Positions 4,082 to 34,352 of a stretch of 64,000 nt of DNA are shown in pieces. The notes below the pieces were generated by a model. It was given only the letters and a program-made list of their open reading frames with translations. It did not search any database and had not been told where the DNA came from. Numbering within the stretch: the first letter of the stretch is position 1; every line of letters begins with the position of its first letter. The stretch is from an uncultured virus (IMG/VR IMGVR_UViG_3300027732_000008). Lineage: Duplodnaviria; Heunggongvirae; Uroviricota; Caudoviricetes. The DNA is taken from the IMG/VR virus record IMGVR_UViG_3300027732_000008; one strand, written 5' to 3'. Position numbers and translations under genes: made by a program.

Positions 4082-5037
4082 ACATCATCTCCTACAAACG
4101 GTAATAATTTTTCTTCAGGCAACTTACCATCTTTGGTTATTGCTTCTATAATTTTCTGTGTATACCATGCTTCTCCAATTGCCGGTAGCGCAGAACTGGT
4201 CATATAGTTGGTATCCAACACTTGATCTTCAACATTGTTACTTATAGATGCAGATGCATTGTTTAAATCTAAATTGTTGCTGAATGGCAATATTTCTTCT
4301 TTGATCTCGGGTACTAGATCTATAATTTTTTGCCTATACCATGCTCCAACAGCGGCCAAAGCAACATTGGATACTTCAGGTGTGGCAATGCCGCTTGCAA
4401 GACTTGCAAACATCCTTGCAGATGCTGTTGCAACCACTGGAGGCACGCCGCCTGCAAACGGCAAACTTGGGGGTGCTGCCGGTATGACACCAGAATTTAT
4501 CATAGTCTGTATTATTTTATCCTCGACAGCCGCTCTAGCACTTGCTGTTGCAGGCAAAGGTATGCTCTTTAAACCAACTGGTCGGTCAAATGGTAATCCT
4601 GCCGCTGGTGCCGCTATAAAGGCATTCTCCAATATGGTACTGATCACTGCCGCATTTACTGCCGCAATGGCCGCATTGGAAATATTAGGAGGTGTTATCA
4701 CTGGAGATGGCGGTGATGTATTGCCTGCACCGGCATTGTCCGATTGACTGGCGGTTGCGGTTGCGGCTTTACCAGTGGCATCACCATCGTTGACATATAC
4801 ATTTGGACTGCCTTGGGCTCTGGGAGTGCCGTCTGAATCCTCATCTCCTAGTCGATTTACTGGAATACCCCCAATAAACACAGTAGGGCTACCGTTTGCA
4901 GTAACAGTGGGTCCACCTTCTACCAAGCTTCCATCAATACTGACCAGGAGTTCGTTTGCAAAAACAGTTCCCTGAGGAATATCGGTAATTATACCGTCTT
5001 CATCATTGGGATCTCCTAGTCTATGTACTTGCGGCAT
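4078..5037 (-). CDS. PAAR-like spike-tip protein with long C-terminal extension
   Basis: MPQVHRLGD...TVFANELLVSIDG...GSPTVFIGGIPVNRLGD...GSPNVYVN, gp5.4/PAAR repeats; start reassigned to ATG at 5037. Confidence 0.75.
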   Translation of the reverse strand: MPQVHRLGDPNDEDGIITDIPQGTVFANELLVSIDGSLVEGGPTVTANGSPTVFIGGIPVNRLGDEDSDGTPRAQGSPNVYVNDGDATGKAATATASQSDNAGAGNTSPPSPVITPPNISNAAIAAVNAAVISTILENAFIAAPAAGLPFDRPVGLKSIPLPATASARAAVEDKIIQTMINSGVIPAAPPSLPFAGGVPPVVATASARMFASLASGIATPEVSNVALAAVGAWYRQKIIDLVPEIKEEILPFSNNLDLNNASASISNNVEDQVLDTNYMTSSALPAIGEAWYTQKIIEAITKDGKLPEEKLLPFVGDDV

Positions 5038-23145: not shown

Positions 23146-24599
23146 TTATAAATTACCTTTTCAGTTTGATATGGATAGTTTGCTTCTTCATAAAATTTCT
23201 TGCGCTTGGTCAAGTGTCTTTTGGCAAACTTTGCTGTGCTTGTTATGTCCCATATCTGGACAAAGTCTTTGTCTTCTGCTTTTCTAATGCCTCGCCCGAT
23301 ACTCTGTATAACCCTAACAAAGCTCTTTCCAGGTTCAACCAAAACCAAGTTAAAGATCCTAGGTATATTAATGCCCACAGAAGCCACACCATAAGTGGCC
23401 ACAATAATTTTATTTGTTGCAAGGGTAACTTCATCATATTCGTCTTTCCTATCCTTTGACTTCATTGCTCCAGATACAAACACACTCTCTGGTAGCCGCT
23501 CCACCAGCATCTTGCCCGATGCAATGCGATCAACTAGTACTAGAGTATTTCCACCTTGACTAATTGCATCAATTGTCTTGGCCAGTTCGTCCAGCCTGCG
23601 TTCATTGCTGGTCAGGTATGTCAATTCTTCTTGATAGGTTTTGTATTCCACCTTGTCATCAAACTGTAGTACCTTTACATGGCAATTGCTCAGTACACCA
23701 ATGTCTTGTAGTTCACTGGCCTGTAATCTGTGTAGAACATTTCCAAGGCTGGCCAGTAGGCTAACATACTCATGTTCTTCTTTGGGAATAGTGCCTGTCA
23801 ATCCCCAACGGATCGGCACCTGGGCAAACGGGCCTGTTAACATTGTTTTAAGCACATCTGCTTTGGCCATGTGTACCTCGTCAACAATGACTGCAATCAA
23901 GTCATCAGTGATGGCTTCAATGCCAATTGCACTGGTACCTTCTTTGCTTCGTTTAATCAATGAATTAATACTTTGCCATGTTGCAATAGTATGTGTATGC
24001 CCAAGGTCTTTCTCATCACCAAAGTATACACCAACATCTAGTCCCATGTTGACATAGTCAGCATGTGTCTGCCGTACCAGATCCTTGTTGGGTACAATAA
24101 CAACTGTTCGACCATACGGTTCGCAAGTTAGACTCATGGCCGCTGTCATTAATGTCTTGCCTGCGCCTGTGGCAATCTCTTGAACACCATGTGGGTTGGC
24201 AAGGAAGCGATTGATACATTCCACTTGGTAGTCCCTAATTACAATAGGCTGGCCTTGTGCAGGATGTCCTTTGGGCCAAACTATATGACTAAAGGTGTCT
24301 TCGGTAACTTCTTCAAATGCAAAATTATGTGCTTGTCTTTTATCGTCAATCTCAACTTGCCAACCTTCCTCATCAAGTATGGGTAGCACTCGATCCAACA
24401 AGTTTAAATATGTTGATCCAGCAGTGGTAAAGAAACTTATCTTACCATCCCACCTACCTAACCTAAATGCAGGCACATGGTATGCATAAGGTAGTTGGTA
24501 CTTTAATTTGGTTTCGCATTTGCGACGAGTGCTAGGGTCAAGGTCGTGGAACTTAACATTCACTTCATCGCGGATTTCTAATCTAGTTATTCCAGGCAT
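23142..24599 (-). CDS. uvsW: SF2 helicase UvsW-like
   Basis: RDYQ, ATGAGKT, DEVH, GLTGT, QSIGRGIR. Confidence 0.9.
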   Translation of the reverse strand: MPGITRLEIRDEVNVKFHDLDPSTRRKCETKLKYQLPYAYHVPAFRLGRWDGKISFFTTAGSTYLNLLDRVLPILDEEGWQVEIDDKRQAHNFAFEEVTEDTFSHIVWPKGHPAQGQPIVIRDYQVECINRFLANPHGVQEIATGAGKTLMTAAMSLTCEPYGRTVVIVPNKDLVRQTHADYVNMGLDVGVYFGDEKDLGHTHTIATWQSINSLIKRSKEGTSAIGIEAITDDLIAVIVDEVHMAKADVLKTMLTGPFAQVPIRWGLTGTIPKEEHEYVSLLASLGNVLHRLQASELQDIGVLSNCHVKVLQFDDKVEYKTYQEELTYLTSNERRLDELAKTIDAISQGGNTLVLVDRIASGKMLVERLPESVFVSGAMKSKDRKDEYDEVTLATNKIIVATYGVASVGINIPRIFNLVLVEPGKSFVRVIQSIGRGIRKAEDKDFVQIWDITSTAKFAKRHLTKRKKFYEEANYPYQTEKVIYK

Positions 24600-24604
24600 A
24601 GTCT

Positions 24605-24633
24605 ATTATAACATTATACAACAACAATGTCTA
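24605..24633 (-). promoter_or_regulatory. sigma70-type promoter for uvsW operon
   Basis: TAGACA-17-TATAAT. Confidence 0.75.
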
Positions 24634-24734
24634 ATTGTATGTTGCCATAATGGATGTCGTGCAGTTGGTTGGGCGACTAATATTTATCTGAAAAACCACG
24701 ATTTTTTAATGGCCAGGAAAAATATATTTTAGTC

Positions 24735-24762
24735 AAAAAAAAGGACTCCTAAGAGCCCTTTT
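24735..24762 (-). terminator. intrinsic terminator after RNA ligase
   Basis: AAAAGGGCTC-TTAG-GAGTCC followed by a long T-tract. Confidence 0.8.
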
Positions 24763-24809
24763 CCCCACCGACCACATTCCACGCAAATAGTCAGCTGTCG
24801 GTGTTGAAC

Positions 24810-25856
24810 TTAATCCTTGCTTTTCAACAAGAACCTGTTGCTGATGGCCTTAAAGGATTGATCAAGTGAGTGTGCTTTAAACACAACTCCTTCTCTTTCC
24901 GTTTGAGCATTAAGGTCACTTTTGCCTTCTGCAAATTTCAACATGTCAGCAATGGTCACAATGCCAAGTGTGTCATATGGCTCAGCTTTAAATGCCACCA
25001 CAGGTACATGCATTAGCTGGTACAGCTCACAAAACTCATTGCGTTCTACTGGATTGAAATAGCGTTTGGCATCTATGTCATAAATGTCAAAAGTGTAAAA
25101 ACTTTGACCTTTAATTTTGTAAGGATTCCCCTGAATGCCTTCGCCTACAATTTCACCTTGTACAGCAAGATTGCGACCGCTTTCGTCAATGGCCGTAATG
25201 ATCTGATCACGGTGTGCCACTTTCCAAAGTGTATTGCCTTCTGTGTCTTTGAGATTTAGGTTACGGCTACATACTCCATGATCGTCACCATTGACATACA
25301 CTGTCATTGACGAGCCATCCAGCTTCTCGGTAACTTCCCAATTGACTCGGTCAGCCTGCCATTGTGCAAACTCTGTGCTTAGGTTTTGAACACGCTCTTG
25401 GTCTGTCTTTGGAATAAATGTTGGGAACAGACCACGCACTTCGCCTGCCAAATGTGCTGGCACTGGTGGATCGTATTTTACAATGCCTAAAATTTCAGTG
25501 ACATCAAACGGCTCATCAGATGCCAAGCGAGTCTTATGAAATGCCTCTACCACTTTGGGAAAATCCCAGTACCTAAGAAGCAGGCCTTGACTCAACTGTC
25601 CGCGAAGTTTTACTGTACGCAGGCGCTCACCCGGAATGCCATCGTACACTCGAGGCTCTTGGCCTTTGCTGAGGAACGGAGCAAGTGCTGTAGGAATCCA
25701 GCTGTCAATTTCACAGTAGACAGCTACATCGCCTACTTTGAATTCATCCTTTTTAATGACCACAGTCCAGCCACCAACCACTGCACATTCAATTGCGTCA
25801 GCATCTAGGATTGCCCGGATTTCGTCAATCGTTCTCATGGTTGCTAGTTTACGCAT
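24810..25856 (-). CDS. RNA ligase, DRB0094/Rnl2-like family
   Basis: MRKLAT...ADAIE N-terminal domain, YCEIDS, LRGQLSQG, PKTDQER, TEKLDGSS, QGE, REGVV, SFKAIS. Confidence 0.9.
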   Translation of the reverse strand: MRKLATMRTIDEIRAILDADAIECAVVGGWTVVIKKDEFKVGDVAVYCEIDSWIPTALAPFLSKGQEPRVYDGIPGERLRTVKLRGQLSQGLLLRYWDFPKVVEAFHKTRLASDEPFDVTEILGIVKYDPPVPAHLAGEVRGLFPTFIPKTDQERVQNLSTEFAQWQADRVNWEVTEKLDGSSMTVYVNGDDHGVCSRNLNLKDTEGNTLWKVAHRDQIITAIDESGRNLAVQGEIVGEGIQGNPYKIKGQSFYTFDIYDIDAKRYFNPVERNEFCELYQLMHVPVVAFKAEPYDTLGIVTIADMLKFAEGKSDLNAQTEREGVVFKAHSLDQSFKAISNRFLLKSKD

Positions 25857-25906
25857 ATCATATTCCTAAATACGGGAGACACAATGCCTCCCGGTAACTT
25901 CAGCTA

Positions 25907-26965
25907 TTATTCTGCTCGCTTCATTACAGTAGTTTCTGCAAGACGCTTCCAACGATCGCCAGCACCTGACATCTTCTTCAAGTCTGCAATCTTAATAACA
26001 CTACGCAAGCTCAACTCGCGCAAGCGATCCTTGTTAGTGTCAACATACTCATAAATTTCTTTAGTAGCACCTTCTTCAAAATCATACGCATCCAACATAC
26101 CATCCATGGTGATTTGTTTGATACGCAACATTTTGTCACGGGTGGTATCCATTGTCAAGTCCAGATAGTGACAACGGCTCTCCAGTGCTGTCAAGTGGTC
26201 TTTGAGTTTGGCAGACCTGACATGCTCAAACTTGATGTTGGTAATGAAAATTGCACTGCCTTTGAAGTCAAACTTGTCTGGCACACCTTCTGAACGCAAC
26301 ATGCGGCTGTCAGTGTTCCAGCTGATGGTACGCTTCTTGCTGGTATCCAAAGCGGCTTTCAAAATGTTCAAGCTCAAGTCGTCAAGCAAGATGCTGTCAC
26401 AGTCGTCAAACACTAGCACATTGCCTTCGTCGCTGAACTGGTACAGTTTGCAATACAAGCCAATGGCGCTCATTGCACCTTTGACCACTTCGTAGCGAGG
26501 ACGCTTGCCACCAATCTTGTCAAACATTGCGGCCTTGTTGAGAACTTTCTCAACGCCAAAGCTCTTGCCAACTCCTGGAGGGCCAACAACAATCATCGCA
26601 CGGACTGAGCCGTCAACAGCGCCTTCTGTCATTTCTTCCAAAATGTCAAAACGCTCACGGATACGGGTAATTGCTTGTTCGTCTGTTTCTAATTGCATTG
26701 GCTTTTCTTTGCGCTTGGGTGCATCGTAGTTAGCTTCAATGCTGGTTGTGGCGCAATCCGCGGCACTGGCTGGCTCAACGTCACGCATGGAAGCCACTTT
26801 AATACGCACTTCGCGGCCAGCAAACTCACCAAGGCTTTCGTCACCTAGTACAGTAACATAGCCACCTTTGGTGCCTTCTTTGTAATCTGCAATCAACTGG
26901 AAAGTCTGATTGTTAATGTTGAAGCTACGGTATGTACCGTTCTTAATTGTAATGTATGCTGACAT
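25907..26965 (-). CDS. AAA+/P-loop ATPase of unknown function
   Basis: GPPGVGKS Walker A, VFDDCD Walker B, FITN, ALESR; start ATG 26965 with AAAGGA SD. Confidence 0.8.
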   Translation of the reverse strand: MSAYITIKNGTYRSFNINNQTFQLIADYKEGTKGGYVTVLGDESLGEFAGREVRIKVASMRDVEPASAADCATTSIEANYDAPKRKEKPMQLETDEQAITRIRERFDILEEMTEGAVDGSVRAMIVVGPPGVGKSFGVEKVLNKAAMFDKIGGKRPRYEVVKGAMSAIGLYCKLYQFSDEGNVLVFDDCDSILLDDLSLNILKAALDTSKKRTISWNTDSRMLRSEGVPDKFDFKGSAIFITNIKFEHVRSAKLKDHLTALESRCHYLDLTMDTTRDKMLRIKQITMDGMLDAYDFEEGATKEIYEYVDTNKDRLRELSLRSVIKIADLKKMSGAGDRWKRLAETTVMKRAE

Positions 26966-27005
26966 TTTTGGGTTCCTTTGCGTGGAATGATTAAACACAA
27001 ACTCT

Positions 27006-27034
27006 ATTATGCTACAAAACAGACTACTTTGCAA
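27006..27034 (-). promoter_or_regulatory. sigma70-type promoter P2 of ATPase/RNA ligase operon
   Basis: TTGCAA-17-CATAAT. Confidence 0.65.
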
Positions 27035-27105
27035 CCTCTTTTTTTGCTTTGTTGCATTTTTGCAACACGGGTTGTTTTAGTAGTGTTTTTCTGCATCATG
27101 TATGT

Positions 27106-27134
27106 ATTATATGCTGGCTAGGCCCAAAGGTCAA
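27106..27134 (-). promoter_or_regulatory. sigma70-type promoter P1 of ATPase/RNA ligase operon
   Basis: TTGACC-17-TATAAT. Confidence 0.8.
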
Positions 27135-27160
27135 CCTTTTTGTTGCACTTTCTGGTGCTG

Positions 27161-27173
27161 TAAGTCGTTGATT
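27161..27173 (-). promoter_or_regulatory. IHF-consensus site
   Basis: AATCAA-CGAC-TTA matches WATCAA-N4-TTR. Confidence 0.55.
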
Positions 27174-27249
27174 TTGTTGGAGTTTTTATATTTTCAGCTT
27201 AAAAAGTGTGGGATTTTTGCACTTTCTGCTGATTTTTAGTTAGTACGCA

Positions 27250-27711
27250 CTAACTTAACTCTGCATCTTCCATGCCTGCCACACGAAGCTTGATCACATT
27301 GCTCAATTGCCATTGCTTGATGTCAATGCCTTTTATTAGACCCAAGTACTTGTTCCTGACCAGTGCAAACTCATTGACGATTGAATCCATGTCGGACACT
27401 TCGGGTTCACCGTCCACATACTTTTCAGCATCCCTGCTGGTCAGTGCGCGATTGTAGTGTTCTGTAAATTGTCGGAACTTGGCACTACGGAGTTTTCTTA
27501 ATTCAATATTTAGATGCTCCAGTATTGCTTCTATCTCTTGCAATTGATTGAAACGATATTCTACAATACCTGGCATATCTCTACTGGCTCGCTCTAGGCT
27601 ACCAGACATTTTTAATTCGGCACGAGCTTCGGCCAATTGGTTTTCAAAGTAGGCAATACAATCAGGCAACTGACCGATATCGCCGGCTACTTTTCTATAC
27701 CATTGACTCAT
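27250..27711 (-). CDS. uvsY: recombination mediator UvsY-like
   Basis: Helical ~153 aa; DAEKYVDGE, KQWQLSNVIKLR. Confidence 0.8.
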   Translation of the reverse strand: MSQWYRKVAGDIGQLPDCIAYFENQLAEARAELKMSGSLERASRDMPGIVEYRFNQLQEIEAILEHLNIELRKLRSAKFRQFTEHYNRALTSRDAEKYVDGEPEVSDMDSIVNEFALVRNKYLGLIKGIDIKQWQLSNVIKLRVAGMEDAELS

Positions 27712-31424: not shown

Positions 31425-34352
31425 ATGTCAACTCGTAAAATTAATACCATCAAGCTAACTGACGCAACACCAAGCGACCACTTGGGACGCTGGGGCGAAA
31501 TCACCTACAGGGACGGATACCTGTACTACCATGATGGTGTTACCCCAGGTGGTGAACTGATTGGGGGTGGTGGGAGCGGTGGTGGAGGCCCTACTACATG
31601 GACCAGCATTACAGGCATGCCCAGCTTTGCCGCTGTTGCTACAAGCGGTGCGTATGCTGACTTAACAGGCAAGCCGGCAACAACTAGCGTTTTTAATACG
31701 GGCACAACAAGATCAATAAGTGGTGAGTATGGTGTATCGGACTCCTCTGGGACAACCGTAGTCGCTGGCGGAACAGGCACTGGTACTAATATGTTTTATT
31801 GGGGTCCTAATGGTTCAATTGCAAATTGCACAGCATTAATTGATGCATTAGCTTCTTCGTTAGGAATCACTGTTGCAGGTTTGATTGGAACGAATGTTTC
31901 TAGTCCTAATATGGTAGGTGGTGCAACAATAGTTGGTATGGGTTATACAGATCGCGGTGATGGTACATTTACTCCAGTATGTTGGATCAGCGGAGAAATT
32001 ACCAGTTCAGCAGGAGGAGTAGCAACCTTTGGTGGTGGCCTAACATTTCAAGATAATACTGTACAGACAACTGCTTACACTGGAGAACATGATCACGAAG
32101 CCTATGAAATAACAAACACAAGTGCCTCAGGTACGACACATTCAGTTAGCGTAGGCACTGATGGAATGATTTCATTCCCAGTAATAGATGGCGAAAGAAC
32201 TCTATGGGGTGCGGTTGACGAAGATTTCAATATTAAAACAACCAGAACCGAGCCTGGAATTGATGCCGACATTAGTATACTAAGCGCAGACGACATATGG
32301 ATGGAAGCAGGCGACGATATTGATCTTAAGGCAGACGGCACGGTTCGTATTACATCTGATAATGCTGCCGCCGGCCCCCAATGGAGCTTTGGCACAGATG
32401 GTACATTAACATTACCAAGTGGCGGAGCGGTAGATGGCAACTTTGTCGATGGTCAATGGTTAGATGTTTGGTTGACAGCACCAGAAGGAGCAACTAAAAC
32501 AGCAGGTGTTCGAGATTTCTTTGGTAAGACAGTGGCTTATGTCAACGAAGATAGTTTTATAATACAAACCAATCGAGCAGTATCTACTAGATCTTGGATC
32601 TTTGGTGAGGATGGTATCCTAACATTACCAGCAGGTGGTACTATCACAGAAGGTGGCGGACTCACAGGTGCTATTCGACTAACGCCAGCAGGTGGAGCCA
32701 ATGAATATCAAGCATTGGTAATTTACCCAACCGCAGGAGATGGTGATCACATACACTTGACCGCAGGTGGTGGCACCACTGACCTGTATCTAGGCAATGA
32801 TAATCAGTATGTCCAGATTCAGCATAGTGGTCATGTAGTAGTACAAGCCGCTGATGGCGTAGACTATAGTCAATGGCTGTTTAACAAAAATGGTGACCTA
32901 ACATTGCCAGCTGGTGGAGACATTAAAGACAGCAACGGCGCAAGCGTATTAGGCGGCGGCGGAGTTGGCACTTTAGATTCAGTAACTGACACTGGTTCAA
33001 CCACTACCAACGGCATAACAGTTGGTTCAGTGACACTGACAAACGGAGCAGTGATTCGAGACACTACGGGTAATGCAGTGGCCATTGGTAAAGATGCTGG
33101 CCTAACCACACAAGGCACTCAAGCAGTGGCAATTGGTATCAATGCTGGAGTGACCACACAAGGCAACAACTCAGTGGCCATTGGTCCCGGTGCCGGCGCC
33201 AGCACACAAGGCACAGAAGCAGTGGCAATTGGGACCGGTGCTGGTGAAACCATACAAGGTAATAGTGCTGTGGCAGTTGGCTACAATGCTGGATTAACCA
33301 CACAAGGTCAAAACTCAGTGGCCATTGGTAAAGATGCTGGCTCAAATAGTCAAGGCATCTTCGCAGTGGCCATTGGCAGGGATGCTGGCCATACCACTCA
33401 AGGCGGTGGTGCAGTGGCCATGGGCCGCAGTGCTGGCGGCAACACACAAGGCACCTCGGCTGTGGCCATTGGCGAGCAGGCTGGCGAAACCACACAAGGC
33501 AACTACTCAGTGGCCGTTGGTTCTATTGCTGGCTCAAGTGACCAAGGCGTCGGTGCAGTGGCCATTGGTACAGCCGCTGGTTCAATCACACAAGGCCAAA
33601 ACTCAGTGGCCGTTGGCTACAATGCTGGCGCAAATGCCCAAGGCGAACAAGCAGTGGCCATTGGCTTAAATGCTGGACTGACCTCACAAGGCAATTACGC
33701 AGTGGCCGTTGGTCATGGTGCTGGTCAAACTAGTCAACCTGGGTACACGATCATATTAAATGCCACTGGCTCAGCAGTCAACGGCGTTGAGGCTCAAACT
33801 GATAGTTTTTATGTGGCACCAATTAGAAGTGCCACAGCAACAGCCAATGTGTTATATTACGACACCACAACCAAAGAAGTAACTTATGGTGCAGGTGCTG
33901 TTTCATTTGATGGCAACTACAATAGTTTAACTAACAAACCAACTATCAGAATAGCTGTGGCAGCTGGCTCAGGCCCCGGTGGCAACTTGCAAGCAGATTC
34001 GTTGGCATTGGCTGGTCTTAACCCCACTGAAAACATACCTTCAACCTACGGCGGCGACTTGATACTTCAAGGTGGTGTAGGTGGCGCCAACGGCGACTTG
34101 TATGGTGAAGTTAGAATCAAAAGTGGAACTATTGGTGCAAACTATGAATGGCACTTTACCACTGACAAGAAAATTAAACTGCCAGCAGGTGGTAGCATTG
34201 TTGACAGCACAGGTACCAGTGTATTGGGTGGTAGTGGTAGCTATGCTCCGGCGGTTCCAGCTAACTGGGCAAGTCCAGCTCCTACTACAATAGCTGAAGC
34301 CTTGAATCGAATAGCTGCCAAGCTGTTAACTTTGGGCGGTGACCTGCCTTAA
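31425..34352 (+). CDS. tail-fibre/adhesin-like protein with YadA-like beta-roll repeats
   Basis: 975 aa; 14 x 16-aa xxAVAIGxxAGxxxQG repeats; repeated W.F..DG.LTLP.GG modules; own TAAATA (31383-31388) and terminator. Confidence 0.8.
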   Translation: MSTRKINTIKLTDATPSDHLGRWGEITYRDGYLYYHDGVTPGGELIGGGGSGGGGPTTWTSITGMPSFAAVATSGAYADLTGKPATTSVFNTGTTRSISGEYGVSDSSGTTVVAGGTGTGTNMFYWGPNGSIANCTALIDALASSLGITVAGLIGTNVSSPNMVGGATIVGMGYTDRGDGTFTPVCWISGEITSSAGGVATFGGGLTFQDNTVQTTAYTGEHDHEAYEITNTSASGTTHSVSVGTDGMISFPVIDGERTLWGAVDEDFNIKTTRTEPGIDADISILSADDIWMEAGDDIDLKADGTVRITSDNAAAGPQWSFGTDGTLTLPSGGAVDGNFVDGQWLDVWLTAPEGATKTAGVRDFFGKTVAYVNEDSFIIQTNRAVSTRSWIFGEDGILTLPAGGTITEGGGLTGAIRLTPAGGANEYQALVIYPTAGDGDHIHLTAGGGTTDLYLGNDNQYVQIQHSGHVVVQAADGVDYSQWLFNKNGDLTLPAGGDIKDSNGASVLGGGGVGTLDSVTDTGSTTTNGITVGSVTLTNGAVIRDTTGNAVAIGKDAGLTTQGTQAVAIGINAGVTTQGNNSVAIGPGAGASTQGTEAVAIGTGAGETIQGNSAVAVGYNAGLTTQGQNSVAIGKDAGSNSQGIFAVAIGRDAGHTTQGGGAVAMGRSAGGNTQGTSAVAIGEQAGETTQGNYSVAVGSIAGSSDQGVGAVAIGTAAGSITQGQNSVAVGYNAGANAQGEQAVAIGLNAGLTSQGNYAVAVGHGAGQTSQPGYTIILNATGSAVNGVEAQTDSFYVAPIRSATATANVLYYDTTTKEVTYGAGAVSFDGNYNSLTNKPTIRIAVAAGSGPGGNLQADSLALAGLNPTENIPSTYGGDLILQGGVGGANGDLYGEVRIKSGTIGANYEWHFTTDKKIKLPAGGSIVDSTGTSVLGGSGSYAPAVPANWASPAPTTIAEALNRIAAKLLTLGGDLP
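33069..33740 (+). repeat. 48-bp period coding tandem repeat, 14 copies
   Basis: cagtggc(c/a)(a/g)ttgg recurring every 48 nt. Confidence 0.9.

Follow-up and report, generated by a model that had tools for sequence, protein, structure and literature searches.

Four reports describe the systems closest to the one considered here. In Staphylococcus aureus, the long 3′ untranslated region (UTR) of the bacterial gene icaR contains a UCCCCUG anti-Shine-Dalgarno motif complementary to the gene's own ribosome-binding site (RBS) region, and the pairing blocks the initiation complex and creates a substrate for RNase III (Ruiz de los Mozos et al. 2013, PMC3868564). In Vibrio cholerae, RNase E releases the autoregulatory small RNAs (sRNAs) OppZ and CarZ from 3′ UTRs, and OppZ also induces termination by Rho (Hoyos et al. 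2020, PMC7398697). In Bacillus subtilis, the leader of hbs forms a helix of 14 base pairs (bp) with the 3′ UTR, through which cleavage of the leader by RNase Y is modulated (Braun et al. 2017, PMC5737220). RBS-complementary sequences located hundreds of nucleotides (nt) downstream have also been reported to base-pair with the RBS in vivo, preventing initiation and accelerating decay; those elements are synthetic 8-mers, of a kind that selection generally removes from genes (Gill et al. 2025 preprint, PMC12697547). Here we describe a putative phage element of related design in a 64,000-nt stretch of DNA from an uncultured Caudoviricetes virus (IMG/VR record IMGVR_UViG_3300027732_000008), the whole of which is referred to as the window. 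A hairpin directly ahead of the terminator of an operon encoding an AAA ATPase and an RNA ligase displays in its loop the complement of the ATPase ribosome-binding region, and probably acts as an anti-RBS element. All features of the operon lie on the minus strand of the window.

As in icaR, part of the 3′ UTR can pair with the operon's own ribosome-binding region, here through helices of 13 and 6 nt. The phage element differs from icaR, to which it has no sequence relation, in its short 3′ UTR, in a complement displayed by the loop of a hairpin next to the terminator and in a pairing that, within the window's clade, has two parts around the Shine-Dalgarno (SD) sequence. It would share with OppZ and CarZ the arrangement in which an RNA from the operon 3′ end, with the shared terminator, pairs with its own transcript and inhibits translation, giving the negative feedback that we propose for the phage; its target would be the RBS of the first cistron, and its seed is held in a hairpin loop. 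Whereas icaR was established by experiment, the phage element is supported by covariation. The long-range helix between leader and 3′ UTR is similar in size to that of hbs, but the phage helices lie beside or over the SD and AUG, suggesting a translational block. A distant RBS complement is likewise common to the phage and to the synthetic 8-mers, whose repression in vivo is in line with the role proposed here; in contrast to those 8-mers, the phage complement is long and actively retained, is presented in a loop and for the most part leaves out the SD core in the window's clade.

The ATPase leader (…UAAUCAUUCCACGCAAAGGAACCCAAAAAUG) contains the 13-mer CATTCCACGCAAA at 26989-26977, which runs into the SD AAAGGAA (core GGAA, 26973-26976) ahead of the ATG at 26965-26963. 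Its exact complement, TTTGCGTGGAATG, is found at 24787-24775, inside the loop of the pre-terminator hairpin. Both positions agree with those in a preliminary description of the locus, and a repeat search of the window recovered the pair as a 13-nt, 100% complementary inverted repeat. As RNA, CAUUCCACGCAAA (26977-26989), abutting the SD, and UUUGCGUGGAAUG (24775-24787) form the 5′ and 3′ sides of what we term helix A. The exact 13-mer occurs at these two sites and at no others in the window, and likewise just twice in the record of a 285-kb relative; no further copy that could be a target in trans was found in either. The 285-kb record also holds no one-mismatch copies, and 13 two-mismatch copies compared with 6 for a reversed control. 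When the 60-nt stretch preceding each of 26 terminator-like sites in the window was compared with the 6 kb upstream, this pair was the longest complement and the only one to precede a start codon. The expected number of 13-mers per terminator is approximately 0.005 (60 × 6000 / 4^13; our own arithmetic). A position-free scan of the same 26 sites identified no other operon in the window with a pre-terminator complement of its own start region.

The stem reported as ACCGAC…GTCGGT around the complement was confirmed and extends to 7 bp, CACCGAC (24803-24797) with GUCGGUG (24772-24766), closing a 24-nt loop; RNAfold gives the same fold for this hairpin (24766-24803). An intrinsic terminator follows at approximately 24765-24735, predicted from a G+C stem with a UUAG loop and a U-run, and its stem covaries among relatives. 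Together the two hairpins of the 3′ UTR fold with −30.7 kcal/mol (z −3.69; 1 of 200 shuffled sequences folds as well), and the ATPase leader alone is unstructured (−4.3 kcal/mol, z +1.25). RNAalifold predicts six pairs in the stem of the first hairpin, five of them with changes on both sides, and leaves the loop open in the consensus. A semi-conserved, A/U-rich stretch, GUU(U)AAC, lies ahead of the stem. A covariance scan of 24500-27300 against Rfam gave no match near its gathering score; the best, Atu_C8, covers the hairpin and terminator with 22.5 bits against a threshold of 50 (E 0.26).

The nearest record (G001) is 100% identical across the region and hence uninformative, and a DNA search of the phage collection for close named relatives returned short ligase matches only. 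The loci gathered numbered 183, made up of 181 metagenomic or viral contigs encoding ATPase relatives, G001 and one named phage. The window's clade, with ATPases 67–100% identical, comprises 39 loci in 27 haplotypes; exclusion of L025, which ends inside the ligase gene, leaves 26 usable haplotypes from 38 loci. Helix A is present in all 26 of these, with 9–15 bp. Its 10-bp core is Watson–Crick paired in 257 of 260 cells, a figure that falls to 43–102 of 260 when the partner is slid by 1–3 nt. Across 27 aligned leaders the blocks CCACGCAAAGGAA and AUGUCAGC are conserved, and the promoter–block interval and the SD–AUG spacer vary.

Substitutions on the two sides of helix A match, a positive outcome for the check on covariation of both 13-mers suggested in the preliminary description. 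The pair 5′ of CCACGC is U–A in 23 haplotypes, A–U in two (L031 and L032) and C–G in one (L105); the pair 3′ of it is A–U in 24 and G–C in two (L105, and L032 against its sister L031). A leader A to G change in L013, opposite an unchanged U, converts one A–U pair to G·U. Eleven haplotypes carry a matched 1-nt deletion, in which CAUUCC/GGAAUG becomes CAUCC/GGAUG with the loss of one U and one A. Re-dealing the 3′ partners among haplotypes shortens the mean helix from 11.5 to 9.8 bp, and re-dealing them among the 12 site-pair types shortens it from 10.7 to 8.4 bp. In both tests, none of 20,000 permutations attained the observed mean, a count that is not a true probability since the sequences are related. 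The conservation and covariation in relatives establish that the pair is more than a chance match, and the link between the two UTRs of one transcription unit drawn in the preliminary description appears to be a real, selected RNA pairing. Support for it comes from natural covariation (compensatory changes, a G·U pair and a matched deletion) rather than from mutagenesis.

The preliminary description overlooked a second helix at the start codon. In the 5′ part of the same loop, outside the 13-mer complement, GCUGAC (24790-24795) is complementary to GUCAGC at +3 to +8 of the ATPase frame (26963-26958), that is, to the G of AUG and the next five nucleotides. All 26 haplotypes have this helix B, of 6–9 bp. 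Apart from L031 and L032, where the loop has UGACAU, paired instead with AUGUCA, GCUGAC does not vary within the clade, and a synonymous A to G change within helix B of L104 keeps a G·U pair. When the leader and 3′ UTR are folded jointly with RNAcofold, both helices form and the SD plus spacer (13 nt) is left as an internal loop, the SD core being unpaired in the window's clade. The predicted ΔΔG is −14.7 kcal/mol, compared with a mean of −3.8 and a best value of −10.9 kcal/mol for 500 shuffled leaders. With helix A ending at the SD and helix B at the start codon, the SD would be clamped between the two.

The spread of the design to distant ATPase clades was also overlooked. In clades whose ATPases are 53–63% identical to that of the window the leaders are unrelated, yet many pre-terminator loops complement their own RBS. 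The leader and 3′ segments are GGAGCCAACCAUG and UGGUUGGCUCC in the L054 group, L063, L069 and L076; GGGCUAGAAA and UUUCUAGCCC in L072 and L086; CUAGGAGA and UCUCCUAG in L061; GGAGCCUAGACAA and UUGUCUAGCUCC in L064; GGAGCGCAA and UUGCGCUCC in L141; CUAGGCAAU...AGGAG and AUUGCCUAG...CUCCU in L129; and CUACUGCAAAG and CUUUGCAGUAG in L124. The cross-clade test used 38 cluster representatives of the 94 non-redundant loci with a terminator call; the calling is crude, and some first terminators (for example in L033 and L049) are probably miscalled, an error that could weaken the cognate signal but not strengthen it. By RNAduplex energy the cognate 3′ element ranked best in 8 of the 38 and among the top three in 10. 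Mean cognate energy was −15.9 kcal/mol against −12.4 kcal/mol overall, matched in 0 of 10,000 random re-pairings. Watson–Crick runs of at least 9 nt were present in 9/38 cognate and 24/1406 non-cognate pairs, and runs of at least 10 nt in 6/38 and 4/1406, respectively. Nineteen representatives have a cognate run of at least 7 nt, and in 14 of these, on our own reading of the folds, the run lies in the loop of a separate hairpin beside the terminator.

A possible cultured analogue may exist in Pseudomonas phage 30-3 (L024, LC727698.1; 284 kb). Its leader segment GGAGUAGCAUUU, which extends from the SD to just ahead of the AUG (2975-2990), can pair with GGAUGCUACUUU in the region 4135-4175, 18 nt past the ATPase stop, through eight Watson–Crick and four G·U pairs (duplex −21.5 kcal/mol). 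The same GGAUGCUACUUU segment doubles as the 3′ arm of a local hairpin, and we regard this phage as a candidate. A 10-mer in Klebsiella phage Phi_KR1 was rejected, as it falls within the next gene.

Across loci the hairpin tracks the ATPase and not the ligase. Four loci (L015, L016, L018 and L111) encode the ATPase only; in these the hairpin stem starts 5–6 nt past the ATPase stop and the loop complement lies 20–22 nt past it. Elsewhere, the ATPase and hairpin are separated by an open reading frame (ORF) of 114–118 amino acids (L008 and L010), by a small ORF (L106) or by one of 705–715 amino acids that replaces the ligase and overlaps the ATPase stop (L013, 1522-3639; L023, 450-2597). The remaining loci have one of three ligase alleles (57–100% identical) in this interval, with or without a further small ORF. 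The hairpin stays 3′-terminal whatever cargo intervenes. On this comparison of loci, the RNA ligase is an interchangeable passenger gene between the ATPase and its hairpin, outside the regulatory pair. The word AGUUACC follows the ATPase stop nearly everywhere and opens the hairpin in the ATPase-only loci, a distribution which indicates that cargo was inserted repeatedly at one spot; in the window this recurrent insertion point is at 25894-25900, upstream of the intercistronic hairpin.

That intercistronic hairpin (25873-25893), noted previously as CGGGAG/CTCCCG between the two genes, was located at 25893-25888 and 25878-25873, 3′ of the ATPase stop. In other loci with an RNA ligase or small ORF next, its place is kept and its stems differ yet stay complementary. 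A U-rich run often trails it in relatives, making it a possible leaky terminator, and it might end some transcripts.

Two sigma-70-like promoters are predicted upstream of the leader. P1 (27106-27134; TTGACC, 17-nt spacing, TATAAT) matches 11 of 12 consensus positions, and contigs from RNA libraries extend to 27099 and 27085, a weak hint only. The proximal P2 (27006-27034; TTGCAA, 17-nt spacing, CATAAT) matches 9 of 12; from this prediction, transcription would start near 26999, some 10 nt ahead of the 13-mer, and a −35/−10 pair stands at equal distance in all relatives. The consensus scan of the window that gave P1 and P2 did not list the terminator at ~24735-24765. The stretch is present in 23 runs recorded as RNA, all freshwater or lake metatranscriptomes, four of which were compared as assembled contigs, whose ends are not equivalent to transcript ends, cleavage sites or small RNAs. 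One contig spans 24769-27129, although a contig is no proof of a single transcript; the predicted promoters lie 5′ of the leader site and the terminator 3′ of the loop site. Contigs of runs X1 and X2 both end at 24769, within the 3′ arm of the hairpin. The segment 24665-24768, containing the terminator and spacer, is covered by a contig in 0 of the 4 runs while the flanking genes are covered; as contigs only, this is uninformative either way. Run X2 has a break at 26978/27007, where the adjoining pieces overlap by 30 nt; this resembles a node of the assembly graph and not an RNA end.

The complementarity, with its conservation and covariation, its display on a hairpin and the unstructured leader, leads us to favour, with reasonable confidence, the interpretation that the pre-terminator hairpin is an anti-RBS element giving negative self-control of ATPase translation. 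The loop would form helix A (13 bp, ending at the SD) and helix B (6 bp, over the G of AUG and the next five nucleotides) with the ATPase leader; the two helices together would clamp the SD and start codon, leaving the 30S subunit unable to load, and ATPase translation would shut off once the 3′ end of the message is made. This interpretation infers that a single RNA carries the two sites, that they do pair in vivo and that translation is repressed as a result. Of the two outcomes offered in the preliminary description, translational feedback on the ATPase is retained as the likeliest role. We lean slightly towards action in cis, as in icaR, over a freed fragment as for OppZ and CarZ; trans action would be possible after decay.

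Several observations weigh against this interpretation. The permutation tests ignore the kinship of the sequences. L115, with an ATPase identity of 79.5%, retains the greater part of the 5′ block without an anti-RBS hairpin within 3.5 kb downstream, and appears to have lost the hairpin; a mismatch in L019 and L020 reduces helix A to 10 bp. Part of the conservation of the 5′ block has another cause, since the block includes the SD. Pairing of 13 plus 6 bp with a stem-closed 24-nt loop is topologically strained, and RNAcofold opened the stem to form the duplex. The cognate run is shorter than 7 nt in 19 of the 38 cluster representatives. Longest-run, sliding RNAduplex and pre-terminator tests detected no pairing in the clade with 63–68% ATPase identity or in that with the leader gagggcaatATG. 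Eight cultured phages yielded one candidate only, Pseudomonas phage 30-3: no pairing was found in T2, Aeromonas Aes012, Escherichia G17, Acinetobacter DLP2 or Vibrio D527, and Vibrio V05 has just 6–7 nt of complement. The design is not universal across ATPase clades.

Nested within the anti-RBS interpretation is a version that acts in trans only, in which the hairpin and terminator, ~70 nt in all, are cut from the mRNA, accumulate and repress new ATPase mRNAs in the manner of OppZ and CarZ. We regard this as possible but somewhat doubtful. Only a few nucleotides ever separate the hairpin from the terminator, in distant clades and in loci with inserted cargo as well, and this constant adjacency despite divergence gives them the appearance of a single module. 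An open loop presents the seed, the stem is preceded by the A/U-rich GUU(U)AAC, and the seed pairs with its own operon, with no other obvious target; as the target 13-mer is unique in the 285-kb relative, that operon would be the sole target there. Against this, the four RNA runs contain no contig over 24665-24768, though such libraries usually lose short RNAs, and the ATPase-only loci, with the stem 5–6 nt past the stop, have no room for a promoter of its own. A broader and more speculative proposal, to which we give limited credence, is that the hairpin and terminator constitute a family of phage sRNAs derived from 3′ ends that autoregulate a conserved early AAA ATPase in trans, with a seed that re-evolves to suit the RBS of each clade. 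The interval between the ATPase stop and the module would then be a docking place where cargo (RNA ligases, a large ORF, small ORFs) joins a self-limiting unit, and if so, a leaky intercistronic hairpin would set the share of transcripts carrying the brake.

The pairing could instead act positively, on stability, by shielding the leader from an endonuclease or from decay that depends on the 5′ end. Helix A begins ~10 nt from the predicted 5′ end and the SD core is unpaired between the helices in the window's clade, and hbs shows that a 14-bp helix between 5′ and 3′ UTRs can modulate RNase cleavage (PMC5737220). In most other clades, by contrast, the partner of the loop includes the SD core and in many cases the AUG (GGAGCCAACCAUG, CUAGGAGA and GGAGCG), so that pairing must compete with ribosomes, and in the window helix B covers +3 to +8. 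A stabilising role like that of hbs is therefore unlikely.

We give little weight to a role at the level of DNA, with the 13-mers as two sites for a DNA-binding protein or recombinase flanking a mobile or invertible cassette. The 13-mers do form an inverted repeat with 2.2 kb between the copies, genes have often been inserted between the ATPase and the hairpin, and sites of one protein would co-change too. However, the 3′ copy always lies in the loop of a hairpin with a covarying stem directly ahead of a terminator, pairing survives in L013 by a G·U that would be a mismatch in DNA, and a separate second complementary segment is present at the start codon; hairpin display, G·U pair and second helix together make such a role improbable. 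Furthermore, the repeats enclose the ATPase gene itself, which is never the part that varies, and domain and PHROG scans revealed no adjacent recombinase gene.

That the match is functionless, whether arisen by chance or left over passively from an inverted duplication of the leader, is hardly credible: some 30 inverted 13-mer pairs are expected in a 64-kb window (our own arithmetic), but this site pair is kept down to 67% ATPase identity while adjoining leader and spacer bases vary, shows compensatory changes, recurs as a design with unrelated sequences in other clades and copies only the paired bases, not the promoter or SD. Equally far-fetched is the reading, suggested for circularisation in the preliminary description, that pairing joins the mRNA ends for circularisation or repair by the co-encoded, NgrRnl-like RNA ligase; this reading loses its basis because the hairpin and pairing are kept where the ligase is absent or replaced (four ATPase-only haplotypes and others with unrelated cargo), and because the paired sites are internal, leaving 5′ and 3′ tails and no ligatable nick. 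A primary transcript moreover has a 5′ triphosphate and is not a ligase substrate.

The ATPase gene (25907-26965) encodes 352 amino acids and matches phrog_1250 over its whole length (residues 5–349, E 1.6e-81); the match to Pfam AAA_16 (PF13191) is below the cut-off (28.5 against 32.6 bits). The translation contains the Walker A motif GPPGVGKS together with VLVFDDCD, the P-loop core of an NrdC.10-like family. A tblastn search with the protein matched 1304 phage records. It is ~35% identical to NrdC.10-type proteins of T4-like phages; the RB69 match is annotated NrdC.10, and the coding sequence of the Aeromonas phage Aes012 relative bears the note NrdC.10. A sequence search of the structure database found no solved structure related to the ATPase. 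The RNA ligase gene (24810-25856) encodes 348 amino acids with an N-terminal OB domain (PF21189, E 2.9e-27) and a nucleotidyltransferase domain (PF09414, E 1.2e-29), and includes EKLDGSS, which contains the KxDG lysine motif. It matches the Naegleria gruberi RNA ligase NgrRnl over its full length (PDB 5cot, E 1.2e-86), and we presume that it belongs to the family labelled Rnl5.

Domain and PHROG matches on the minus strand identify a DEAD/ResIII helicase (24599-23142) downstream of the operon and, upstream, a UvsY-like mediator (27714-27250), a 'cysteine dioxygenase'-like ORF (phrog_4786, 28457-27999), a UvsX-like RecA recombinase (30167-29073) and a gp32-like single-stranded DNA-binding protein (31205-30222). 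Relatives of the operon are found on contigs of up to 285–356 kb. These neighbours and contig sizes indicate that the locus is the replication and recombination region of a large uncultivated freshwater phage. On the opposite strand amid these minus-strand genes lies a 975-amino-acid ORF (31425-34352, +) with YadA-head repeats and a weak PHROG match to a tail spike.

The region upstream of the ATPase leader offers further observations. The predicted P1 start falls on the A of an ATG, the first codon of a lysine-rich, 30-codon ORF (27099-27007, −) ending in a TAA inside the P2 −10 box, possibly a leaderless small ORF, and one RNA-library contig ends exactly at 27099. Coding by this ORF is doubtful, as the frame is cut short in the relative L015. 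Between P1 and P2 there is a hairpin, GUUGCA-AAAA-UGCAAC (27063-27048, −); in relatives the stem GUUG(C)/(G)CAAC is preserved and the loop differs, and the related words TTGTTGCA and TTTTTGCACTTTCTG recur at 27138-27231.

The principle itself is already known. Notable here are the phage setting, the bipartite form displayed in a loop, and natural covariation of unusual clarity. Full-text literature searching found no phage case of pairing between 5′ and 3′ UTRs or of an autoregulatory 3′-end RNA, and searching on T4 gene names gave, as judged from the listing, genome descriptions only and nothing on nrdC.10 regulation. Pairing between UTRs of bacterial mRNAs is known from very few cases (icaR and hbs), each established by experiment in one species, and autoregulatory 3′-end sRNAs from a handful of bacterial operons. 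The same logic appears here in lytic-type phages, tied to a widely conserved ATPase, with covariation strong enough for the pairing to be read without experiment. The adjoining RNA ligase emerges as interchangeable cargo. More elements of this type might be found by a simple search for loops ahead of a terminator that complement the RBS at the head of their operon, and the compact module, with a leader of ~40 nt and a 3′ end of ~70 nt, may serve for studying how RNA-only feedback evolves.

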